In this document: positions 1 to 32,570 of the stretch, piece after piece
How positions within the stretch are numbered: position 1 is the first letter of the stretch
Layout: every line of letters begins with the position of its first letter
Virus genome (UHGV): UHGV-0171999
Source of the DNA: a virus
DNA: 64,000 nt
Strand: one strand, 5' to 3'
Made by a program: the position numbers and the translations under genes
Notes under the pieces: model-generated
Databases searched by the model: none
What the model was told of the DNA's origin: nothing
Seen by the model: the letters and a program-made list of their open reading frames with translations, nothing else

Positions 1-221
1 GTAACGGAGCCTCCAATTCCAGACATTGCTGCAGAAGTTATAGGTTGAATAACTGACATCCATGGTAATTTATCAGTTGGAATACCCATTACGTCGCCTT
101 GTGCTCTTTGAGGTGGATGCAGACCAACTACACGAACACGAACACGACCTAATTTTAATGGGTCCATTCTATCTTCAACAACACCAACAAACCAATTAAG
201 GTTATTACTTATCATTTCCAT
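1..221 (-). CDS. 5: baseplate hub/tail lysozyme gp5, N-terminal part; gene continues past window start
   Basis: Reverse complement of 1-221 translates MEMISNNLNWFVG...SVIQPITSAAMSGIGGSV, matching remembered T4 gp5 N-terminus; start codon at 219-221; overlaps gene 53 stop. Confidence 0.85.
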   Translation of the reverse strand, partial: MEMISNNLNWFVGVVEDRMDPLKLGRVRVRVVGLHPPQRAQGDVMGIPTDKLPWMSVIQPITSAAMSGIGGSV

Positions 222-795
222 AAGATTTCTCCATTATACGTATAAGGTCGTTCATAAATGAATTGATGTCTGATTTTGCTATTATTTTTATTTGACGAAG
301 TTTTTCATTTTCAAGAACAGCAGCTTCATACGTATCGACTGCAGCAAGTGCTCCTTCATATTGAGGATATTTTCTAGCTTTATCGCCTTTGTCATACCAA
401 ACATATGGATTATCATCATATGATACTAAATTATAAAATTTTTCACCGTTCTCGTTCACATGATATACTATTTGGTCTCCACCTACGTTTTTGTATTTTT
501 GTATAGATGCTTGATAAGCAGCTTCTTGCGAAGTAATCCATCCATAATACGGATCATAATTATCATTACACATCAATAAAACCCAATACAACTGCGGATT
601 TCCATATATAGCATTTGCTAATTCTTCCGGGCGTGGTGAACCTTTAATATAATAAGTACGTAAACGGTATCCCGCAAGAGCACGTTTGAAATAGTCTTTA
701 TAGTTTCTAAAAATATCTGTCATAGGAATAGTCGGCGCGTTTTTATTCACCGTTTTGGCCGCATATTCAATCGGATCAAAAAATGTAAAGAGCAT
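205..795 (-). CDS. 53: baseplate wedge protein gp53
   Basis: 196-aa ORF, size and position upstream of gene 5 as in T4; late promoter upstream. Confidence 0.85.
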   Translation of the reverse strand: MLFTFFDPIEYAAKTVNKNAPTIPMTDIFRNYKDYFKRALAGYRLRTYYIKGSPRPEELANAIYGNPQLYWVLLMCNDNYDPYYGWITSQEAAYQASIQKYKNVGGDQIVYHVNENGEKFYNLVSYDDNPYVWYDKGDKARKYPQYEGALAAVDTYEAAVLENEKLRQIKIIAKSDINSFMNDLIRIMEKSYGNDK

Positions 796-808
796 GGGCC
801 CTCCTGTT

Positions 809-816
809 TATAAATA
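809..816 (+). promoter_or_regulatory. T4 late promoter TATAAATA, upstream of gene 4
   Basis: Exact TATAAATA about 27 nt before the ATG at 843. Confidence 0.6.
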
Positions 817-823
817 TATTATC

Positions 824-831
824 TATTTATA
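824..831 (-). promoter_or_regulatory. T4 late promoter TATAAATA on minus strand, upstream of gene 53
   Basis: + strand TATTTATA is the reverse complement of TATAAATA; divergent arrangement with gene 4. Confidence 0.6.
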
Positions 832-842
832 AGGAGAATCCA

Positions 843-1295
843 ATGGCATATTCTGGAAAATGGGTTCCTAAAAATATATCAAAATATAGAGGTGACCCTA
901 AAAAAATTACGTATAGATCAAATTGGGAAAAATTCTTTTTTGAATGGTTAGATAAAAATCCAGAAATTATTGCATGGGGTAGTGAAACAGCAGTAATTCC
1001 TTATTTTTGTAATGCAGAAGGGAAAAAACGTAGATACTTCATGGATATTTGGATGAAAGATTCTTCTGGGCAAGAATTTTTTATTGAAATAAAACCTAAA
1101 AAAGAAACACAACCACCAGTTAAACCAGCACATCTAACAACTGCAGCGAAGAAAAGATTTATGAATGAAATTTATACATATTCCGTTAATACTGACAAAT
1201 GGAAAGCAGCGCAAGCTTTAGCTGAAAAGCGCGGAATAAAATTTAGAATTCTAACAGAAGATGGATTACGAGCTCTTGGCTTTAAGGGGGCATAA
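843..1295 (+). CDS. 4: head completion protein gp4
   Basis: 150-aa ORF, size and synteny as T4 gp4. Confidence 0.8.
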
Positions 1296-2119
1296 TGGCT
1301 ATTTTTCAAATAATTAATGAAAGCACTCCCCAAGTTCCAAAGGTTAAGCAATCATTAAACGAAAAGAAATGGATTCAGATAGGTCTTGAATACAAAAAGG
1401 CCAAAGCAAAAGGAATGACAGGAAAGCAATTTGCCGAAGAAAGAGGAATCAAATACTCTACGTTTACTTCAGCAATGTCAAAATATGCTTCAGGAATTAA
1501 AACGGCTGAAAAGATTCAAAAGCTTGAATCAAAACCAATGAATAAACTCAATAAGCAAGAAAGACAACTGCTTATGATAAATTCATTCAGGCAAACATTG
1601 CGTGATAAAATTCGTAATGAAGGCGCAGCAATTAATAATAAAACCAGAAAGTGGTTTGCTGAAACTATTAAGCAAGTAAAAGGACATAAAGTTGTTCGCC
1701 CGCAGCCGGGACGAATATATGCTTTTGCTTATGATGCTAAACACAAAGAAACTCTTCCTTACTGGGATAAATTTCCTTTGATAATTTATCTTGGTTTAGG
1801 TAAACATAATTTAATGTACGGATTGAACTTGCACTATATTCCACCTAAAGCTCGTCAGCAATTTTTAGAAGAGCTTTTAAAGCAATATTCAAATACACCT
1901 ACTATTACTAATAAAACGAAATTAAAAATTGATTGGAGTCAAGTGAAAGGATTTAGGGGTGCAGACCAAATGATTAAGGCATATATACCAGGTAATATTA
2001 TGGGTAGCCTTGTTGAAATCGCCCCGAAAGACTGGGCGAACGTTGTGTTAATGCCACTTCAGCAGTTCGTTTCAAAAGGAAAACGTTTCTCTGCAAACAA
2101 AGTCTGGTCAAATATCTAA
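1295..2119 (+). CDS. 2: DNA end protector protein gp2
   Basis: 274-aa ORF, size and synteny as T4 gp2; start overlaps gene 4 stop. Confidence 0.8.
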
Positions 2120-2225
2120 TTCTATTATCTTCCATTCTTTTCTATTGTTTGTTCTAATTGGAATTGAATGGAAGGGACTTAGATCCATTATACCACCAAC
2201 ATTTATAAAGCATTATGAGGAATAT

Positions 2226-2756
2226 ATGTCGCAAGCACTACAACAAATTTTTAACCAAGCAAATACAACTAACTTTGTAGTATCAATACCACATAGTAAT
2301 ACTACATCTGCTTTTACTTTAAATGCTCAGTCAGTTCCTATTCCAGGAATTAGGATACCTGTTACTGATACCGTGACTGGGCCATTTGGACTGGGTCGAG
2401 CACAGCGTCCAGGAGTTACATTTGAGTACGATCCACTCATCGTGAGATTTATAGTTGATGAAGAGCTTAAGTCGTGGATAGGAATGTATGAATGGATGCT
2501 AGGAACTAGTAACTATCTTACAGGCGAAAATACTGCCCCAAAAACAGGTCCTGAATACATTACGCTTTACATTTTAGATAATAGTAAAACTGAAATCGTG
2601 ATGTCAATAAATTTTTATAAGCCTTGGGTTTCTGACCTGTCTGAAGTAGAATTTAGCTACACGGAAGATTCAGACCCGGCTTTAGTATGTACAGCAACGA
2701 TTCCTTATACGTATTTTCAAGTAGAAAAAGATGGTAAAATTATAGCAGAAGTTTAA
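2226..2756 (+). CDS. 3: tail completion/sheath stabilizer gp3
   Basis: Internal ATG of ORF 2145..2756 with GAGGA Shine-Dalgarno gives 176 aa (T4 gp3 size). Confidence 0.75.
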   Translation: MSQALQQIFNQANTTNFVVSIPHSNTTSAFTLNAQSVPIPGIRIPVTDTVTGPFGLGRAQRPGVTFEYDPLIVRFIVDEELKSWIGMYEWMLGTSNYLTGENTAPKTGPEYITLYILDNSKTEIVMSINFYKPWVSDLSEVEFSYTEDSDPALVCTATIPYTYFQVEKDGKIIAEV

Positions 2757-2805
2757 TGCTTCAGTTTCATGTGTTATAATCTTAACTAAATTTGAGGAGA
2801 AACAT

Positions 2806-3518
2806 ATGAAACTAATCTTTTTAAGCGGTGTAAAGCGTAGTGGAAAAGATACCACTGCTGATTTTATTATGAATAATTATTTTGCAGTTAAATATCAACT
2901 TGCTGGTCCGATTAAAGATGCACTAGCCTATGCGTGGGGTGTATTTGCATCAAACACCGTTCATCCTTGCTTAACTCGTAAAGAGTTTGAAGGAATTGAC
3001 TATGATCGTGAAACTAATTTAAATCTGACTAAATTAGAAGTAATTACGATTATGGAACAAGCATTTTGCTATCTTAATAATAAAAGCCCAATTAAAGGTG
3101 TGTTTGTTTTTGATGACGCAGTTAATTTCGTAGCATTTAACAAGATTGCTGACGTTATAAATAATATTGAAGATCAATGGTCAGTCCGTCGTCTGATGCA
3201 AGCCCTAGGTACGGATTTGATTGTTAATAACTTCGACCGCATGTATTGGGTAAAATTATTTGCTTTAGATTATCTTGATAAATTTAACTCAGGTTATGAT
3301 TATTATATCGTTCCTGATACTCGTCAAGATCATGAAATGGATGCGGCTAGGGCGATGGGTGCTACAGTAATTCATGTAGTTCGTCCTGGTCAAAAATCCA
3401 ATGATACTCATATTACAGAAGCTGGATTGCCAATTCGTGATGGCGATTTAGTAATTACAAACGATGGTTCTCTTGAAGAACTTTTTTCTAAAATTAAAAA
3501 TACACTAAAGGTACTATA

Positions 3519-3519
<1 letters not shown>
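2806..3519 (+). CDS. 1: deoxynucleoside monophosphate kinase gp1
   Basis: N-terminus MKLIFLSGVKRSGKDTTADF (P-loop) and length match remembered T4 gp1. Confidence 0.9.
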
Positions 3520-4216
<697 letters not shown>

Positions 4217-4228
4217 TTTCACAAAGTT

Positions 4229-4258
4229 GTTTACACGTTGATGAGGTAGTGATACTAT
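4229..4258 (+). promoter_or_regulatory. T4 early promoter
   Basis: GTTTAC, 18-nt spacer, TACTAT; upstream of ORF 4289. Confidence 0.6.
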
Positions 4259-4288
4259 TATCTCATCAAAATTAATTAGGAAAATAAA

Positions 4289-4603
4289 ATGAAAACTTTC
4301 AAAGAATTTACTTCTACAACTACCCCGGTTTCTACTATTACTGAAGCTACTCTTACTTCTGAAGTTATTAAAGCAAATAAAGGACGAGAAGGTAAACCAA
4401 TGATTAGTTTGGTTGATGGTGAAGAAATCAAAGGTACTGTTTACCTAGGCGATGGATGGTCTGCTAAAAGGATGGTGCTACAATCGTTATCTCTCCTGCT
4501 GAAGAAACTGCGTTGTTTAAAGCTAAACACATTTCTGCGGCACATCTCAAGATTATTGCTAAAAATCTTTTGTAATAAATATTTCACAAAGTTGTTTACA
4601 TAG
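4289..4603 (+). CDS. ipI-locus internal-protein-like gene with capsid-targeting-like leader; apparent frameshift near 4466
   Basis: N-terminus MKTFKEFT...ITEA resembles IP capsid-targeting leader; after about residue 60 the frame runs into junk through the next promoter, while another frame reads DGATIVISPAEETALFKAKHISAAHLKIIAKNLL to a stop near 4575. Confidence 0.5.
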   Translation: MKTFKEFTSTTTPVSTITEATLTSEVIKANKGREGKPMISLVDGEEIKGTVYLGDGWSAKRMVLQSLSLLLKKLRCLKLNTFLRHISRLLLKIFCNKYFTKLFT

Positions 4604-4623
4604 GGTTTTAGTTGTGATACTAT
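4594..4623 (+). promoter_or_regulatory. T4 early promoter
   Basis: TTTCACAAAGTTGTTTACA...TACTAT consensus. Confidence 0.6.
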
Positions 4624-4651
4624 TACCCTATCAACTACCGAGGAGAATAAA

Positions 4652-4837
4652 ATGAAACGTTGTGAATTAATTCGAAATGTTGCTATTGCAATTTCTGCTT
4701 CTGCTTTTAGTTTTTCAATGTTTGTTGGATTTATATGCGGATTATTAACTACAGCAGAAAACGTTTTTTCACTTGTAGTAGCATTTTTAATTGGTTTAAT
4801 TGCTATCGTTATGGATAAAATTTCTAAAGGTGAATAG
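4652..4837 (+). CDS. small hydrophobic membrane protein
   Basis: 61-aa ORF with GAGGAG Shine-Dalgarno; predicted transmembrane segments. Confidence 0.55.
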   Translation: MKRCELIRNVAIAISASAFSFSMFVGFICGLLTTAENVFSLVVAFLIGLIAIVMDKISKGE

Positions 4838-4838
4838 A

Positions 4839-5219
4839 ATGTACAAAGTGTATGCGGATTATCAGGCTAATCCATCTGAAAAGCCAGGTTGTCAAATTGG
4901 ATGGGCTCATGATACTTTGCTTGAAGCAGTAGATGCTGCTCAAAAATTGGGATATAAATATGTAGAGATTGTTCAACCGTCAGGAAAAGTTATTACTCTT
5001 GAAGAGTTCAATAACATTAAACCAAACTTTTTACTTTTTGCAGGTGATAATTATTATCCTCGTGGTGGATATGCTGATTTAATAGCGAAAGCCGCTACCG
5101 AAGATGAACTCCGTGACATTATCAAAGAAAATGAAAACAAACCAGATTATGGTTCTAATCGCTTTGATTGGTGGCAAATTGTAAATGCCAATACGCACAC
5201 TATTGTTGATGAAGGTTGA
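4839..5219 (+). CDS. hypothetical protein
   Basis: ATG MYKVYADYQ... with AAAGGTGA Shine-Dalgarno; 126 aa. Confidence 0.55.
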   Translation: MYKVYADYQANPSEKPGCQIGWAHDTLLEAVDAAQKLGYKYVEIVQPSGKVITLEEFNNIKPNFLLFAGDNYYPRGGYADLIAKAATEDELRDIIKENENKPDYGSNRFDWWQIVNANTHTIVDEG

Positions 5220-5221
5220 TA

Positions 5222-5509
5222 ATGATTCTTTATGCGAAAGTATCGTCCGTTGAAAATGGATATAAATATGATCAAGAAGCAGCTAAAGCCTTGATTGATG
5301 ATTATGGCATTTTAACATATTTTGAAGTTGAAAAGGTTTACATTGACCGTTCATCTTCTCAAGTTAAATTAGTGAAGGAAGACCGTAAATTTAACACAGT
5401 AAATTTTGATTTCTTTATTGAAACAGAAAAAGGTCCTCTTGAATATGATATTTTCAAGAATCCTTTGGGTCTTGAATGCATCGTAAATATGTATTATCAT
5501 AAATGGTAA
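5222..5509 (+). CDS. hypothetical protein
   Basis: ATG MILYAKVSS... after GAAGG; 95 aa. Confidence 0.5.
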   Translation: MILYAKVSSVENGYKYDQEAAKALIDDYGILTYFEVEKVYIDRSSSQVKLVKEDRKFNTVNFDFFIETEKGPLEYDIFKNPLGLECIVNMYYHKW

Positions 5510-5606
5510 ATATGCTTTAAGAATTATTTGTTATTATTAACTCATATCGCACTGATTAATACCCTCTATCATCAAGGGTTCTTGCTTGAGAGCCTTTGTT
5601 AATAAT

Positions 5607-5679
5607 TGGGAATTAGCCAAGTTGGTAAGGCACTGGATTTTGATTCCAGGATGCAAAGGTTCGAGTCCTTTATTCCCAG
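5607..5679 (+). tRNA. tRNA-Gln (anticodon UUG)
   Basis: Manual cloverleaf: acceptor TGGGAAT/ATTCCCA, anticodon loop TTTTGAT, T-loop TTCGAGT. Confidence 0.8.
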
Positions 5680-5680
5680 C

Positions 5681-5767
5681 GCGAGAATGGTCAAATTGGT
5701 AAAGGCACAGCACTTAAAATGCTGCGGAATGATTTCCTTGTGGGTTCGAGTCCCACTTCTCGCACCA
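5681..5767 (+). tRNA. tRNA-Leu (anticodon UAA), long variable arm, encoded CCA
   Basis: Acceptor GCGAGAA/TTCTCGC, anticodon loop CTTAAAA, long extra arm. Confidence 0.8.
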
Positions 5768-5772
5768 AATTT

Positions 5773-5846
<74 letters not shown>

Positions 5847-5856
5847 ATTTAATTTA

Positions 5857-5931
5857 CTCCGTGTAGCTCAATGGCAGAGCGATCGCCTGTTAAGCGATTG
5901 GTTATAGGTTCGAATCCTATCACGTCCGCCA
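5857..5931 (+). tRNA. tRNA-like gene, anticodon GUU (Asn-type), acceptor stem mismatched as read; possible pseudo or chimeric tRNA
   Basis: Clean D-arm, anticodon arm (loop CTGTTAA) and T-arm (GGTTCGAATCC), but 5' CTCCGTG vs 3' CACGTCC leaves top three acceptor pairs unpaired. Confidence 0.45.
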
Positions 5932-5935
5932 AATC

Positions 5936-6011
5936 CGAGGCATAGCTCAGAAGGAAGAGCAAGGACCTTCTAAGTCCTAGGTCGTAGGTTCGATCCCTAC
6001 TGCCTCGACCA
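5936..6011 (+). tRNA. tRNA-Arg (anticodon UCU), encoded CCA
   Basis: Acceptor CGAGGCA/TGCCTCG, anticodon loop CTTCTAA, T-loop TTCGATC. Confidence 0.8.
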
Positions 6012-6027
6012 ATTAAGTGAGGAAAAT

Positions 6028-6378
6028 ATGAAAGGTAATGTTTATTTAGTAGTTCATGATTTAACGTTCTATTTTAATCACAATGACACTGTTATTTCTG
6101 AACGTGTAATTAATTTGCTTTATCAGCATGCAGATTATGTTTATGTCGAAAACGAATATGGTCATTGGCAATTTCTCAAAAATCGTTCATTTGGTTTAGA
6201 TGGTTACGAATACTTTGAACGTAAAGACCTTTTAGATAAAATTCCGTTATCTACACAATATCAAAATCATAAGTCTTTATATAAATGCCGTCCAATTCGA
6301 AATGCTGAATCCGCGTATGAAGCAATTGATTTATGGCGTAAACGCCGTGAACAGATTGATTCTTTAAAAGAATATTAA
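6028..6378 (+). CDS. hypothetical protein
   Basis: 116-aa ORF with GTGAGGAAAA Shine-Dalgarno immediately after tRNA-Arg. Confidence 0.6.
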   Translation: MKGNVYLVVHDLTFYFNHNDTVISERVINLLYQHADYVYVENEYGHWQFLKNRSFGLDGYEYFERKDLLDKIPLSTQYQNHKSLYKCRPIRNAESAYEAIDLWRKRREQIDSLKEY

Positions 6379-6382
6379 GAAA

Positions 6383-6716
6383 CCGGGTCGCTACCGGTAA
6401 GTCGTCGGACTGATGTTCCCTGCGTAAGGACTGGCATTAACAAATCTTTACGATCTGTTAATGTCCCCTTACATCACAGCAGAAACGGCGCACAGAATTA
6501 TCGATTCGAGGAAATATCTTTGCCGTAAGCCGAGTAGCGTTTTTGACGGAACGTTCGGATATGGTCGAGATATGGCCTTTTAAAAATATTGAGTAGCGTC
6601 AACTGCTTAATAACCGGGTTCGAATCCCGGCGTTTCGTACAAACACTTGCCTTAGCAGGTGGAACCCCGACAAGGTTGCCGCAAGGCTTAGCCCCGACCA
6701 AAAGGTTGGGGCTTTT
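6383..6716 (+). ncRNA. candidate structured stable RNA(s), possibly like T4 species 1/2 RNAs (rnaC/rnaD)
   Basis: About 330 nt with no supported ORF, higher GC, long hairpin around 6420-6470, tRNA-like T-arm CCGGGTTCGAATCCCGG, ends in an intrinsic terminator. Confidence 0.4.
6690..6716 (+). terminator. intrinsic terminator hairpin with T-run
   Basis: GCCCCGACC-AAAA-GGTTGGGGC followed by TTTTT. Confidence 0.6.
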
Positions 6717-6850
6717 TGGTATCTAGGCCTTTCTGGACCTCTCTAGGCATCATTTAGTTTCTACCCTTTATAATATATTATCCTATCCTTTAATTGCCCC
6801 TTTCATCCCTAGAATTCCCTAAAACTTTTTAAAAAATTTTTCACAAAACT

Positions 6851-6880
6851 GTTTACACCCCTGTTCTTCCATGGTACTAT
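6851..6880 (+). promoter_or_regulatory. T4 early promoter, member of a repeated promoter-leader cassette
   Basis: GTTTAC...TGGTACTAT; near-identical to cassettes near 22594, 24033 and 48545. Confidence 0.65.
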
Positions 6881-6911
6881 ACAACTATCAACTACTGATA
6901 CAGAAAACAAC

Positions 6912-7187
6912 TTGGAGAATGAAATGGATAATTACGGCGAACTGTTCAACTTCTTTATGAAATGCGTTTCAGAAGATTTCGGTCGTACAGTGAATGATAT
7001 TAAAGTTATCGGTCCTGACCATCCGATGTTTGAAACTTACGCAGTAATGGGTAATGAAGATGGTCAGTGGTATACTGTAAAGGTTGTGATTAACATGTTC
7101 ACTGCTGAAGGTTATGTTAAACTGTCTTCTAAAGTTTACCATGATAACGACGAAATCGCAGAAGAATATTTCAATAATATGAAATAA
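6912..7187 (+). CDS. hypothetical protein
   Basis: 91-aa ORF after early promoter and GGAGAA Shine-Dalgarno. Confidence 0.6.
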   Translation: MENEMDNYGELFNFFMKCVSEDFGRTVNDIKVIGPDHPMFETYAVMGNEDGQWYTVKVVINMFTAEGYVKLSSKVYHDNDEIAEEYFNNMK

Positions 7188-7291
7188 GTTTACATAGGCT
7201 CATGATTGAGATATTATGAGCCTATAACTTGATGATAGAGTATAATACTACTTTTACGGATTTTAAATCTTAATCAACCTAAGGAAATACT

Positions 7292-7885
7292 ATGAACACA
7301 CTGAAGAAAATTGTTGAGTTTATTCGCACTAAACTTGGTTCTGCTATGGCTAAAAATTTATCTGTTGAAGAACAGTATACTGCTGCAGCAGCAAAACTAC
7401 TTGATAAAATTAAAGACCTAAAAACTGCTTCTGTTAAATCTATTAATGAAGAAAAACGTATTCGTGAACTTATTGTCGAAAAGAATCGACAGGCCGAATC
7501 AAAAGAGCGTGAAATTCGCAAGCTTCTTTCCGAAGGTCAAGATGTAACAATGCATGCTAAACTCGGCTTGCTATATCGTCGAACAGCTGAGCAGTTGACT
7601 ACTAAAGCTGATGGTTATGCTGAAATGCGAATTGAAATCGCCAAGAAAGTAGTTGAATTGGATGATGCTCGCCAAGAACTTGCAGTTAAATTGGAATATA
7701 TCCGTGAAACTCGTGCAGCAAATGCCCTTGGAATTAGTACTGCTGATGATGTAGTTGAAATTGCAGCGCTGACTAAGGTTGATATTGAAGATACTCTTGC
7801 TCGAGTTGAAACCTTTAATGGCAATATTTCTGGGGTTGAAACTACCTCTGCCGATGTTCAGGAATATATTAATTCTTTGAAATAA
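7292..7885 (+). CDS. hypothetical coiled-coil protein
   Basis: 197-aa ORF rich in heptad-like charged repeats; AAGGAAA Shine-Dalgarno. Confidence 0.6.
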
Positions 7886-7890
7886 TGATA

Positions 7891-7906
7891 AGGGGCTTCG
7901 GCCCCT
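7891..7906 (+). terminator. UUCG-tetraloop hairpin
   Basis: AGGGGCTTCGGCCCCT. Confidence 0.55.
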
Positions 7907-7926
7907 ATTACTTGGAGTAAATAGGA

Positions 7927-8532
7927 ATGAAAATGCAAAGTGATTTTAATTCAATGTTTGAAGAGTTCCAAAGACAGGTTGATGTTCCAGACCAATTACT
8001 AAATGCTCTTAAACGCATGGCAGAAGGACGTAATTACTATTGGGGTTCTTCATATGAAACTGATGAAAGTCTTTCTGGAAGATTTTCTAGAGGTAAAAAG
8101 TCTTTAATACGTCCTGGAATACTTATTAACAGTATTGAATCAATTCATTTATTAACATGCGATTTTGATGTTGAATTTACTGATTTCATTTCTCCTGAAT
8201 GGACGGTCTGTTATTTAAATGACGATTATGATTATCTTGGCGTTTATAGTTTAAGTGACGCATGGTTTAAACGTAATTTACAAAAGTCAAATTTATTTTA
8301 TATTGATACTACAGTAAAATTTCAGGGAAAGAAATATTTCTTTACTCTTATAGTTGACTCTGAAACAAAATATGAAAATAAGCGTATTCTTAGTAAAAAG
8401 AATATCTTGACTATTGTTGATGATCTTTTTGATAAATTCGTAGAAAATCCTAATTTTGAAAGCGATTTATTAGAAAAATTTGTTAAGGAATGCAGAGAAT
8501 ATGTCAAAGCCATCACTATACCTTCCAAGTAA
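7927..8532 (+). CDS. hypothetical protein, first of four consecutive genes sharing a conserved 3' junction motif
   Basis: 201-aa ORF; C-terminal LEKFVKECREY motif shared with the next three ORFs. Confidence 0.55.
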   Translation: MKMQSDFNSMFEEFQRQVDVPDQLLNALKRMAEGRNYYWGSSYETDESLSGRFSRGKKSLIRPGILINSIESIHLLTCDFDVEFTDFISPEWTVCYLNDDYDYLGVYSLSDAWFKRNLQKSNLFYIDTTVKFQGKKYFFTLIVDSETKYENKRILSKKNILTIVDDLFDKFVENPNFESDLLEKFVKECREYVKAITIPSK

Positions 8533-8893
8533 ACCTTTGAAGTATGAATTAAAGCGCCAGATAATTTCTACCGATGTATTAATGGGTCCTGTGGTAGCTG
8601 TATCATTTGTGATTCTGCTGATTGCTGGAATGGTTATAGACGTTATGACTGATATTGAATCTGGTGTAATATTTGGAGCAACGCTAATTCTTCCATTAAT
8701 AATTCCGCTTTTATTAGTACCTGTAAATTTGGTAGGATACTGGTATCAAGGAAGACATTATCGTAAACGCGTACGTGATTGGAAAGCACAGTGTAAAAAG
8801 ATTAAAAAGGAACACCAGCTTAAACTAGATATGTATGAATTTAATGAAATTATGAAATTTGTTAAGGAATCACGATGCAAAAGCCAAAACTAA
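8501..8893 (+). CDS. small membrane protein, paralog family
   Basis: Start chosen by analogy with paralog junctions (AAGGA...ATG); hydrophobic segments; C-terminal MKFVKESRCK. Confidence 0.5.
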   Translation: MSKPSLYLPSKPLKYELKRQIISTDVLMGPVVAVSFVILLIAGMVIDVMTDIESGVIFGATLILPLIIPLLLVPVNLVGYWYQGRHYRKRVRDWKAQCKKIKKEHQLKLDMYEFNEIMKFVKESRCKSQN

Positions 8894-9237
8894 ATAAAGT
8901 CAAATATTCGTTTCCTGAGGCACTATTAATTCTTGCTGTGTCAGTATTTGCAGCTCTTGCAGGTAGTTTTATTGGATTAATGATTGACTGTATTATTTTA
9001 AACATCGATGGTTCAGCGATTATAACAGAGGTTTGGAGTGAACTTCGTTTTACTATAGCGATTACATTATTTTCATTCTTTGGCACCATGTTATATTTTC
9101 ATTATGATAATTTTAAAATAAATTGGCAAAGAAAAAAGGATTACAAAATACAATTAAAAGAATATAATAGCTATATGTCTTATATTGAAAATGAATCAAT
9201 GAAAGAGTTTGTGAGTGATTGTAGGAAAATCGGATGA
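8875..9237 (+). CDS. small membrane protein, paralog family
   Basis: 120 aa; two hydrophobic segments; C-terminal KEFVSDCRKIG; AAGGA Shine-Dalgarno inside preceding gene's 3' end. Confidence 0.55.
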   Translation: MQKPKLNKVKYSFPEALLILAVSVFAALAGSFIGLMIDCIILNIDGSAIITEVWSELRFTIAITLFSFFGTMLYFHYDNFKINWQRKKDYKIQLKEYNSYMSYIENESMKEFVSDCRKIG

Positions 9238-9722
9238 TTTTAAAAACTCGCTGGTATGATTTAGATGATGGGGATGATGGCATTCCAGTTGATAGAGTTG
9301 ACTGGAATGGCTGTTCCGAAGATATGAAAAATTTGTTGATTAGGGAGTTTAGAATGGGATATCAACCAGTTAAGCCATCTACTATAACAGATGATAAATT
9401 CGTGTGTATTCAAAATGGCCGCGCTAAGTTAACGAATGCTGATTGGTTTACAAATAAGATTATGATTCTGTGGTATATCATTAGTCTTCCTGTGACATCA
9501 TTTGTATTTTGCTTCTTTGGAGAAAGTCCAGTAGGCAGAATGGGAGATTGGATTCTTTTAATCATACTTGTTAATATTTTGACAGCAGCAATACTATCAG
9601 GAATATGGTGTGTGTTCATCGAAATGCCATGGCGGTTACGTAAGCAGCAAAAGATTTTTGATGAAAAGAAATATACTCAAAATTTAAATAACTTTATCAC
9701 TGAATGCAGGAAATTAAAATGA
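9234..9722 (+). CDS. small membrane protein, paralog family
   Basis: 162 aa; hydrophobic segments; C-terminal NNFITECRKLK. Confidence 0.55.
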   Translation: MILKTRWYDLDDGDDGIPVDRVDWNGCSEDMKNLLIREFRMGYQPVKPSTITDDKFVCIQNGRAKLTNADWFTNKIMILWYIISLPVTSFVFCFFGESPVGRMGDWILLIILVNILTAAILSGIWCVFIEMPWRLRKQQKIFDEKKYTQNLNNFITECRKLK

Positions 9723-10159
9723 AAACACTATCAGCTGGTATTATCTTTATGACAGAAGATAAAGATTTATTTATGGGACGAGTTACTGGTTCTCGTAAAC
9801 ATGGAATGATGGCACATCGCTGGGATATTCCAAAGGGCCGCGTAGAAAATTCTGATTTAAACGCGCTAGATGCAGCACGAAGAGAATGCTTAGAAGAGAC
9901 CGGTTTTAGCAATTATAATCCAGACCTTCTAGAAGACCTAGGTGTATTTAAATATTCTAGTAATAAAGACTTACAGTTATTTTATTATACGATTCCAGTA
10001 GAGCATGAGATGTTTAGAAATTGCCATTGCGAGTCTTATTTTGAAAATAAAGATGGAGTTATGATTCCAGAGATGGATGCTTTTGCTCTTATTCCTCGTA
10101 CTCAGTGGCAATATGTGATGGGTCCTTCACTTTACCGAATAATGAACAGCCTCTTTTAA
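9719..10159 (+). CDS. nudE: Nudix hydrolase NudE (e.1)
   Basis: MKTLSAGIIFMTEDKDLFMGRVTG... and Nudix box RRECLEETG match remembered T4 NudE. Confidence 0.85.
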   Translation: MKTLSAGIIFMTEDKDLFMGRVTGSRKHGMMAHRWDIPKGRVENSDLNALDAARRECLEETGFSNYNPDLLEDLGVFKYSSNKDLQLFYYTIPVEHEMFRNCHCESYFENKDGVMIPEMDAFALIPRTQWQYVMGPSLYRIMNSLF

Positions 10160-10962
<803 letters not shown>

Positions 10963-10963
10963 T

Positions 10964-10993
10964 GTTTACTTCCTCCAAGGACTTTGATACTAT
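10964..10993 (+). promoter_or_regulatory. T4 early promoter upstream of denV
   Basis: GTTTAC, 18-nt spacer, TACTAT. Confidence 0.6.
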
Positions 10994-11020
10994 ACATTCA
11001 TCAACTACTTGGAGGAAATT

Positions 11021-11434
11021 ATGACTCGTATCAATTTAACACTTGTTTCTGAATTGACCGACCAACATCTTATGGCTGAGTATCGTGAATTACCACGCGT
11101 ATTTGGTGTAGTTCGTAAACATGTTCAAAACGGTAAACGTGTAAAGGATTTTAAAATCTCTCCAACATTTATCTTAGGCACAGGTCACGTAACATTCTTT
11201 TACGACAAACTCGAATTTTTACGTTTACGTCAAATCGAGCTAATCACTGAATGCTTGAAACGTGGTTTCAAAATCAAGGACACGACTGTCCAGGATATTT
11301 CCGACATCCCTGCCGAATTTCGTAATAATTATGTCCCGTCCGAAGCGTCCATTGCGATAAGTCAAGCACGCTTAGATGAAAAAATTGCTCAACGTCCTAC
11401 TTGGTACAAATACTATGGTAAATCAATCTACTAA
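11021..11434 (+). CDS. denV: endonuclease V (pyrimidine dimer DNA glycosylase)
   Basis: [29 protein letters not shown]... matches remembered T4 endo V; 137 aa. Confidence 0.95.
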
Positions 11435-11440
11435 GGAAAA

Positions 11441-11701
11441 ATGAAAATGTATCAAGAATTTATCATTGAAGCAGATGCCAAAGGTCCTAAATTTAAAGTT
11501 AAAGCTTTCATTGGTGATGCGGAAGACTTTGGCTCATTAAAACGTAATGGGTATTTTTTCTTAGGTGGCGATGGTAAAGAAATCAACACCTATGCAAAAC
11601 GTAGTGAAATTGCTTATGTTGTAGCAAGCCCTAAAGTAGATGTTGACGATATTGGATATGATTTTAACAACTTCGGAATTATTTCTGGCGGTAAAGCTTA
11701 A
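11441..11701 (+). CDS. ipII: internal protein II-like
   Basis: MKMYQEFIIEADAKG leader; size and position after denV. Confidence 0.6.
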   Translation: MKMYQEFIIEADAKGPKFKVKAFIGDAEDFGSLKRNGYFFLGGDGKEINTYAKRSEIAYVVASPKVDVDDIGYDFNNFGIISGGKA

Positions 11702-11704
11702 ATT

Positions 11705-11734
11705 GTTTACGCTTAAGTATTAATATGGTATAAT
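11705..11734 (+). promoter_or_regulatory. T4 early promoter
   Basis: GTTTAC, 18-nt spacer, TGGTATAAT. Confidence 0.65.
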
Positions 11735-11764
11735 TACTCTATCAAAACAAACAAGGAAACAAAA

Positions 11765-12343
11765 ATGAAAACGTATAAAGAATTTATCGCCGAGGCCTTT
11801 GCAGGAAAAGCTCAAGGTATTAATAAGGACGAGTGGACTTATCGTGGTGGAAACGGCTTTGACCCTAAAACTGCTCCACTTGAACGATATCTAGCCACAA
11901 AAGCTTCTGATTTTAAAGCCTTCGCTTGGGAAGGACTTCGCTGGCGTAACGATCTAAATATTGAAGTTGACGGACTTAAATTTGCTCATATTGAAGATGT
12001 TGTTGCTAGTAACTTAGACGCAGCTTTTGTTAAAGCCGACAGTGACCTTCGTCGCTGGAATTTAAAACTGTTCTCTAAACAAAAAGGCCCGAAGTTTGTG
12101 CCTAAAGCAGGTAAATGGGTTATTGATAATAAATTAGCTAAGGCTGTCAACTACGCCGGTCTTGAATTTGCCAAGCATAAATCATCATGGAAAGGTCTTG
12201 ATGCAATGGCTTTCCGTAAAGAATTTGCCGATGTTATGGCTAAAGGCGGCTTTAAGGCAGAAATAGATACCTCTAAAGGTACGTTTAAAGACGCTAATGT
12301 TCAGTACGCTTACGCCGTTGCTAATGCGGCCCGTGGTAATTAA
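11765..12343 (+). CDS. ipIII: internal protein III-like
   Basis: MKTYKEFIAEAFAGK leader; 192 aa close to T4 IPIII size. Confidence 0.65.
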   Translation: MKTYKEFIAEAFAGKAQGINKDEWTYRGGNGFDPKTAPLERYLATKASDFKAFAWEGLRWRNDLNIEVDGLKFAHIEDVVASNLDAAFVKADSDLRRWNLKLFSKQKGPKFVPKAGKWVIDNKLAKAVNYAGLEFAKHKSSWKGLDAMAFRKEFADVMAKGGFKAEIDTSKGTFKDANVQYAYAVANAARGN

Positions 12344-31747: not shown

Positions 31748-32570
31748 GTATTATATAATTTATAAAATAACAAATATAATTAATTCAAAGGAATATATCG
31801 GTGCGCATAGCACCGATAACATAAATGATGGTTATATGGGGTCAGGAACATTGATTCGTGCCGCTTTATTAAAATATGGTAGAAAAAATTTTAATAAAGA
31901 AATTTTACATGTTTTTGATAATGAAAAACAAATGTATGATAAAGAAGCTGAACTTGTAACCGAAGAGTATTGTCTAAAAGAAAATACATATAATATTAAA
32001 CCCGGTGGAAAAGGTGGAACTGCGTATGAACAGACACTTGAACATCGCCGCAAAAATAGTTTAGCAAATAAAGGTAAAAAGAGAACAGAAGAAACTAAAA
32101 TAGCTATTTCACGTGCTTTAAAGAAATATAAACGTACGCCAGAGCATCAAGCAAATTTAAATAAAGCCGTAAGCATAGCTATGAAGCGAAAAGATGTTAG
32201 AAGTAAATTAGCTGGAGAGCGGTCTGAGAAAGATAAATTATCTATATCAAACGGTGTTAAAAAATATTACAATTCTTTGAGTGAAGAAGAACGCGAACTT
32301 CATCGCAAGCGAATTATTGAAGGTAAAAAGAATTCTCCCATGTCATTGGAATCTAGACAAAAGCTTTCAAAAGCTTTAAAAGGACTTCAAGTTGGTTCAA
32401 AAAATCCAATGTATGGAAAAATTTCTCCAACTAGCAAAACCGTTTCAGTTGACGGTATTAAATATGATTCAATTAAAAAGTGCTCAAATGCAATAAAAGT
32501 TTCTAGACATCTTATACTAAAACGCTGTAATTCTACTGATGAAGCTTGGAAAAATTGGATATTATTATGA
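31740..32570 (+). mobile_element. free-standing GIY-YIG homing endonuclease gene (Seg-like)
   Basis: 276-aa ORF with GIY-YIG motifs (YIIYKITN...KEYIG...GSG) and basic repeat C-terminal DNA-binding region; overlaps nrdD stop and nrdG start. Confidence 0.75.

Follow-up and report, generated by a model that had tools for sequence, protein, structure and literature searches.

Acceptor stem of the element between tRNA-Gly and tRNA-Arg

Between the genes of tRNA-Gly and tRNA-Arg the phage genome analyzed here carries a 75-nt element with the anticodon GUU, whose acceptor stem cannot be closed at its top, and the question raised by this locus is whether the element is an unusual tRNA, a pseudo-tRNA or the product of a rearrangement of the tRNA cluster. 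The window, which means the whole stretch of 64,000 nucleotides that was analyzed, comes from a T-even-type phage, as its positions 1-12000 are about 96% identical to many genomes of the T4-like genus Tequatrovirus. Over this part of the window the identity to deposited phage genomes does not exceed about 96%, and each full-coverage match is split into at least four pieces. The source phage seems to represent a distinct Tequatrovirus missing from the INPHARED release of August 2025. The tRNA cluster is composed as follows:

5607-5680, plus strand: intact tRNA-Gln(UUG) (ARAGORN, Rfam)
5681-5767, plus strand: intact tRNA-Leu(UAA) (ARAGORN, Rfam)
5773-5846, plus strand: intact tRNA-Gly(UCC) (ARAGORN, Rfam)
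5857-5931, plus strand: tRNA-like gene with anticodon GUU, 75 nt, a Pro/Asn hybrid as described below (sequence, local Rfam tRNA match)
5936-6011, plus strand: intact tRNA-Arg(UCU), 4 nt after the CCA of the hybrid (ARAGORN, Rfam)

In the letters of the element (CTCCGTGTAGCTCAATGGCAGAGCGATCGCCTGTTAAGCGATTGGTTATAGGTTCGAATCCTATCACGTCCGCCA) the 5' acceptor strand CTCCGTG is opposed to the 3' strand CACGTCC. Both strands pair at positions 4-7, and the combinations C1/C72, U2/C71 and C3/U70 at the top are unpairable, so that the 7-bp stem expected from positions 1-7 with 66-72 is not formed. The initial annotation of this locus had pointed to exactly these unpaired positions, and a re-reading of the letters revealed no error in the bases. 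It had also described the D-arm, the anticodon arm and the T-arm as canonical, which is confirmed by the sequence and by the Rfam alignment: all three arms are present, the anticodon loop reads CTGTTAA in the DNA (CUGUUAA in the RNA) with GUU as anticodon, and G73 together with the CCA end is encoded at 5928-5931.

The element scores 59.6 bits (E = 1.5e-11) with the Rfam tRNA model RF00005, which is far above the gathering score of 29 bits and speaks against a match by chance. A local alignment was obtained, which covers model positions 4-67 at window 5860-5924; the neighboring Gln, Leu, Gly and Arg genes are aligned end to end over model positions 1-71. Across all 64 kb the calls of ARAGORN are limited to Gln(UUG), Leu(UAA), Gly(UCC) and Arg(UCU) and do not include the element, and the Rfam scan of the window detected no tRNA beyond these four and the element itself, which agrees with the composition of the cluster given in the initial annotation. 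An upstream GGA able to rebuild the acceptor stem is absent from the leader ATTTAATTTA, and folding of the element together with its flanks gave no alternative tRNA-like structure.

Two further Rfam matches within the cluster were rejected. They correspond to the Plastid-ycf2 5'UTR RNA, are located on the minus strand at 5936-6009 (antisense to Arg) and 5681-5765 (antisense to Leu), and reach 26.3 and 22.1 bits compared to a gathering score of 65.7 bits, which makes them almost certainly antisense-tRNA-like noise. Directly 3' of tRNA-Arg the window contains a 116-aa ORF (6028-6378, plus strand) that it shares with ECO07P1 and 235Ecol030PP. In RB3, rnaD (species II RNA) is located immediately after Arg, and the rnaD/rnaC region aligns to the window only from position 6377 on (6377-7061, 95.8% identity). 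A strong terminator-like hairpin is found at window 6690-6713.

Origin of the element from tRNA-Pro and tRNA-Asn

A comparison with related phages points to the origin of the element. According to the annotation, the clusters of ECO07P1 and RB3 contain ten tRNAs in the order Gln-Leu-Gly-Pro-Ser-Thr-Met(CAU)-Tyr-Asn-Arg. In the best-matching records the region corresponding to the 431-bp cluster of the window spans about 854 bp and aligns in two pieces, both with 100% identity. The left run, counted from the start of Gly, comprises 98 nt identical to ECO07P1 and ends at window 5870, which is base 14 of tRNA-Pro (locus position 881). The right run, counted leftward from the start of Arg, comprises 76 nt identical to ECO07P1 and ends at window 5861, which is base 5 of tRNA-Asn (locus position 1299). 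Both runs overlap by the 10 nt GTGTAGCTCA at 5861-5870. Compared to ECO07P1 exactly 427 bp are missing, namely the rest of Pro, the whole of Ser, Thr, Met and Tyr, and nucleotides 1-4 of Asn, and no copies of the Ser, Thr, Met and Tyr tRNAs were found elsewhere in the window by ARAGORN or Rfam. In the intact cluster the tRNA-Tyr (ECO07P1 locus 1206-1285), which is called by ARAGORN-style annotation, is itself an unusually divergent long-arm tRNA and reaches an Rfam score of only 30.2 bits with a threshold of 29 bits.

The 5' end of tRNA-Pro reads CTCCGTGTAGCTCAG... (CTCC-GTGTAGCTCA-GTTTGG...) and that of tRNA-Asn GGATGTGTAGCTCAA... (GGAT-GTGTAGCTCA-ATGGCA...). Window 5857-5870 is 100% identical to nucleotides 1-14 of the ECO07P1 tRNA-Pro and window 5861-5931 is 100% identical to nucleotides 5-75 of its tRNA-Asn. 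The tRNA-Asn of many Tequatroviruses also matches the window with 100% identity, but only from 5861 on. As judged from this base-by-base alignment with its relatives, the element is shown to consist of nucleotides 1-4 of Pro (CTCC) joined in register to nucleotides 5-75 of Asn, and this is just what the initial annotation had offered as one possibility, a chimera resulting from the loss of sequence between tRNA genes. The exchange of GGAT for CTCC accounts for the three terminal acceptor mismatches and, in addition, replaces the wobble U4-G69 by a C-G pair. The element and its surroundings can be divided into the following parts:

5847-5856, plus strand: spacer between Gly and Pro, ATTTAATTTA, which is by origin the 5' leader of tRNA-Pro and now precedes the hybrid (within the 98-nt identity to ECO07P1)
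5857-5860, plus strand: CTCC, nucleotides 1-4 of tRNA-Pro and the sole Pro-specific bases left (comparison with ECO07P1)
5861-5870, plus strand: crossover microhomology GTGTAGCTCA, tRNA positions 5-14 in both parents (overlap of the two identity runs)
5871-5931, plus strand: Asn-specific body with the remaining D arm, the anticodon arm, the T arm, CACGTCC, G73 and CCA (identity to the ECO07P1 tRNA-Asn)
5907-5933, plus strand: putative 27-bp SegB preferred site GGTTCGAATCCTATCACGTCCGCCAAA (fit to the published site; same 27-mer in RB3)
Sequence across the junction of the hybrid (probe stretch): CTCCGTGTAGCTCAATGG

The initial annotation had proposed the clusters of T4, T2 and T6 as references for finding a deletion junction. 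A T4-type relative with eight tRNAs and segB at this locus does exist, and the alignment of relatives indeed located the junction, but the ancestor is of the RB3/ECO07P1 type with ten tRNAs and not of the segB-bearing type with eight tRNAs known from T4. It was a Tequatrovirus with GTGTAGCTCA at positions 5-14 of both Pro and Asn, and the 427 bp were removed between these two copies, either by unequal recombination or by single-strand annealing or replication slippage. The intact cluster holds four direct repeats of at least 10 nt, and GTGTAGCTCA is one of them. The deletion junction is located somewhere inside 5861-5870, and recombination, annealing and slippage are indistinguishable from the sequence as routes to this product. 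Taken together, we consider it highly probable that the element represents a hybrid tRNA gene, which arose by a 427-bp deletion within the cluster and is now a pseudo-tRNA.

SegB as a possible trigger of the deletion

As a variant of this mechanism, the deletion may have been triggered by the endonuclease SegB during co-infection with a segB-carrying phage, with a cut at a secondary site in Pro, Ser, Met or Tyr followed by annealing of the flanking 10-mers. In T2L, SegB cuts the tRNA genes Gln, Leu, Gly, Pro, Ser, Met, Tyr and Arg, less efficiently than Asn (PMC2330249), and the secondary sites in Pro, Ser, Met and Tyr fall between the two copies of GTGTAGCTCA. Furthermore, a SegB-initiated and microhomology-mediated rearrangement has been reported for the tRNA region of T6 (PMC13096335). 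On the other hand, a search for segB in the window gave a single match, to a GIY-YIG gene other than segB at about 31.8 kb, and the preferred SegB site in Asn is intact, although a break at this site should usually result in segB homing and not in a deletion. The sequence does not separate the SegB route from a spontaneous deletion between short repeats, and we regard the involvement of SegB as rather unlikely.

The preferred site of SegB in tRNA-Asn comprises 27 bp (GGTTCRANTCC...CCAR) with the distinguishing positions G6, A16, G18, A26 and A27 (PMC2330249). Window 5907-5933 fits all of these named positions in register, and the identical stretch is present in RB3. Going by this fit, the locus should still be cleavable and convertible by homing from segB-carrying phages. 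The GIY-YIG domain encoded at window 31800-32027 (plus strand) is 51% identical to residues 19-94 of SegB (tblastn, E = 2e-22), and its gene probably codes for another seg-type homing endonuclease and not for SegB itself.

Occurrence of the junction and of related hybrids

Using BLAST, the exact junction was not found in any of 50,697 phage records, and it was also absent from IMG/VR, the JGI metagenomes and the GTDB genomes. A gapped pattern, which accepted one element of tRNA size between Gly and Arg irrespective of its sequence, gave no match in IMG/VR, but the negative results with this collection carry little weight, since the intact Asn junction, which served as a control, was present on 2 contigs only. 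About 317 related records contain a normal paired tRNA-Asn and none of them has the hybrid form. The Pro/Asn hybrid appears to be unrecorded so far, while the kind of event is already known.

A second hybrid with a Pro 5' end is present in T6 (NC_054907.1, 66642-66717; positions 2285-2360 of the extracted locus). Directly after tRNA-Gly, this genome contains a 76-nt element that combines nucleotides 1-7 of Pro with the body of tRNA-Thr. It is labeled "tRNA-Thr" in RefSeq (KMB99_gt004), and in the expression test of a 2026 paper (PMC13096335) it was treated like a normal tRNA. The deletion amounts to 165 bp in comparison to the Yersinia phage PST, with the crossover in the 9-mer TAGCTCAGT at positions 8-16. 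The acceptor strands CTCCGTG and AATCAGC show no pairing, the Rfam match is restricted to a local one with 49.4 bits over model positions 8-63, and the element was left uncalled by ARAGORN. The Pro/Thr junction is found in MH550421, AP018814 and NC_054907, which represent two independent sequencings because NC_054907 is the RefSeq copy of AP018814, and also in CJY920. In the Pro/Thr element of CJY920 (about 924-999 of the extracted locus) the encoded CCA is mutated (TATCA), and this loss is consistent with the decay of a pseudogene. Judging from the two junctions, hybrids with a Pro 5' end arose at least two times independently, each by a crossover in the conserved region of positions 8-14.

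These related hybrids also bear on the possibility that the deletion is not real in the phage and reflects an artefact of assembly or amplification, or a minority variant of the stock that was picked by the assembler. The junction is unique among all collections searched and rests on one assembly, assemblers can be misled by repeated tRNA-like sequence, and polymerases can switch templates at microhomologies. However, with 10 nt the repeat is below the k-mer length commonly used by assemblers and is too short to cause a collapse, and the two parents are joined cleanly and in register. Such deletions are viable, as the tRNA region of T4 is dispensable in laboratory hosts, and equivalent deletions are present in T6 genomes that were sequenced independently (MH550421, AP018814). 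An artefact or a minority variant is in our opinion improbable.

Predicted folding and fate of the hybrid RNA

In the intact tRNA-Asn the acceptor strands GGATGTG and CACGTCC face each other, the Rfam score is 74.1 bits over model positions 1-71, and the minimum-energy fold is a cloverleaf with -24.5 kcal/mol (z = -2.0). The minimum-energy fold of the hybrid is no cloverleaf and reaches -17.9 kcal/mol (z = -0.25), with the restriction that thermodynamic folding takes no account of tertiary contacts and base modifications. In the ensemble, the pair probability of the acceptor positions 1-3 of the hybrid is 0, and that of positions 4-7 is about 0.24 compared to more than 0.97 in Asn. The covariance model could have spoken against the initial annotation by scoring the element as a normal tRNA, but the match of the hybrid is local only (4-67, 59.6 bits) in contrast to the end-to-end match of Asn. 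Both this local match and the non-cloverleaf fold support the pseudo-tRNA that the initial annotation had listed as one option, and based on these predictions we assume that the hybrid is most likely a non-functional pseudo-tRNA.

The hybrid is located on the same strand as its neighbors, 10 nt past Gly and 4 nt ahead of Arg, and no terminator-like site was found between Gly and Arg. From this arrangement it is presumably contained in a polycistronic tRNA precursor and is probably still transcribed within it. Cleavage by RNase P depends on the integrity of the acceptor stem including positions +1, +2, 71 and 72 (PMC11143913). Due to the three mismatches at the acceptor top, the hybrid is expected to be a poor substrate of RNase P and a poor ligand of AsnRS and EF-Tu, and the RNA would misfold, mature poorly at its 5' end and be degraded. 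In the case of EF-Tu, poor binding is expected from general tRNA recognition. The GUU anticodon and G73, the identity elements of the E. coli tRNA-Asn, are both present in the hybrid, and with its perfect tRNA body some residual charging may occur.

It seems very improbable that the hybrid RNA accumulates in spite of its broken acceptor end and, by means of its perfect Asn anticodon stem-loop, serves as an uncharged decoy for an anticodon nuclease of the host or for some other defence directed at tRNAs, or that the scar is kept for its SegB target, which would allow re-acquisition of the cluster by homing; the recurrence of the Pro 5' end in T6 and CJY920 would then be a result of selection and not just of a deletion hotspot. 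We give hardly any credit to the idea that the hybrid is a functional tRNA-Asn of unusual form, be it with an acceptor helix of 4 bp or with positions 1-3 re-synthesised in 3'-to-5' direction by a Thg1-like polymerase. The mismatches are limited to the first three 5' positions with the 3' strand, G73 and CCA intact, the same arrangement of a mismatched 5' top opposite an intact 3' strand occurs in 5'-edited mitochondrial tRNAs, and the body of the hybrid obtains the 59.6 bits in Rfam. On the other hand, the two-parent junction fully accounts for the mismatch with no change since the event, the roughly 317 relatives with a paired Asn and none with the hybrid form give no sign of a conserved edited state, and the predicted fold is not a cloverleaf. 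Furthermore, E. coli and T4-type phages are not known to encode Thg1-like enzymes. A conserved aberrant tRNA was rejected, as the relatives carry the normal gene.

Implications for annotation and phage biology

If the element is a pseudogene left by a deletion between Pro and Asn, the cluster should be annotated with four working tRNAs and one hybrid pseudogene and not with five tRNAs, and Pro, Ser, Thr, Met(CAU), Tyr and Asn would be effectively lost. Phage tRNAs oppose tRNA-cleaving defences, and the tRNA-Tyr of T6 counters Septu (PMC13096335). Because of this role, the deletion should narrow the range of hosts that give good growth. At least two independent events begin in tRNA-Pro, and the "tRNA-Thr" of T6 in RefSeq is itself such a scar. 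A covariance-model match that is local only and lies between full-length tRNA matches can be reused as a signature of these scars. The formation of hybrid genes, which is reportedly known from laboratory mutants of T4, would thus operate in natural or stock lineages too.

Comparison with known systems

A natural analogue is the Pro/Thr element of T6, which shares with the Pro/Asn hybrid the position right after Gly, the Pro 5' end CTCCGTG, the crossover in the conserved D-arm region, the broken acceptor, the local-only Rfam match and the missing ARAGORN call. It differs in that the partner is Thr and not Asn, that 165 bp instead of 427 bp are deleted and that Pro contributes the complete 5' acceptor strand of seven bases. 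The intact tRNA-Asn(GUU) of RB3, RB14, T2 and phages of the ECO07P1 type is 100% identical to the hybrid from position 5 to the CCA including the SegB preferred site, whereas positions 1-4 read GGAT there and CTCC here, with the loss of three acceptor pairs. A resemblance to the 5'-edited mitochondrial tRNAs of Acanthamoeba, chytrids and Dictyostelium, which are repaired by Thg1-like enzymes, exists in the restriction of the mismatches to the first three 5' positions, but it is superficial, as the hybrid would be a one-off recombination product that is absent in relatives.

The closest known kind are the hybrid tRNA genes of McClain and Foss (Cell 1984;38:225, PMID 6380760), who reportedly described laboratory deletion mutants of T4 in which unequal recombination between short homologies of tRNA genes had produced in-register hybrid genes. 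The window matches the pattern reported for these mutant hybrids in its short homology, 10 nt that occupy positions 5-14 in either parent, and in the loss of the intervening genes. In contrast to the T4 mutants, which were obtained in the laboratory from a phage without tRNA-Asn, the hybrid combines Pro and Asn, belongs to another Tequatrovirus with a ten-tRNA ancestor and was recognized in a genome sequence.
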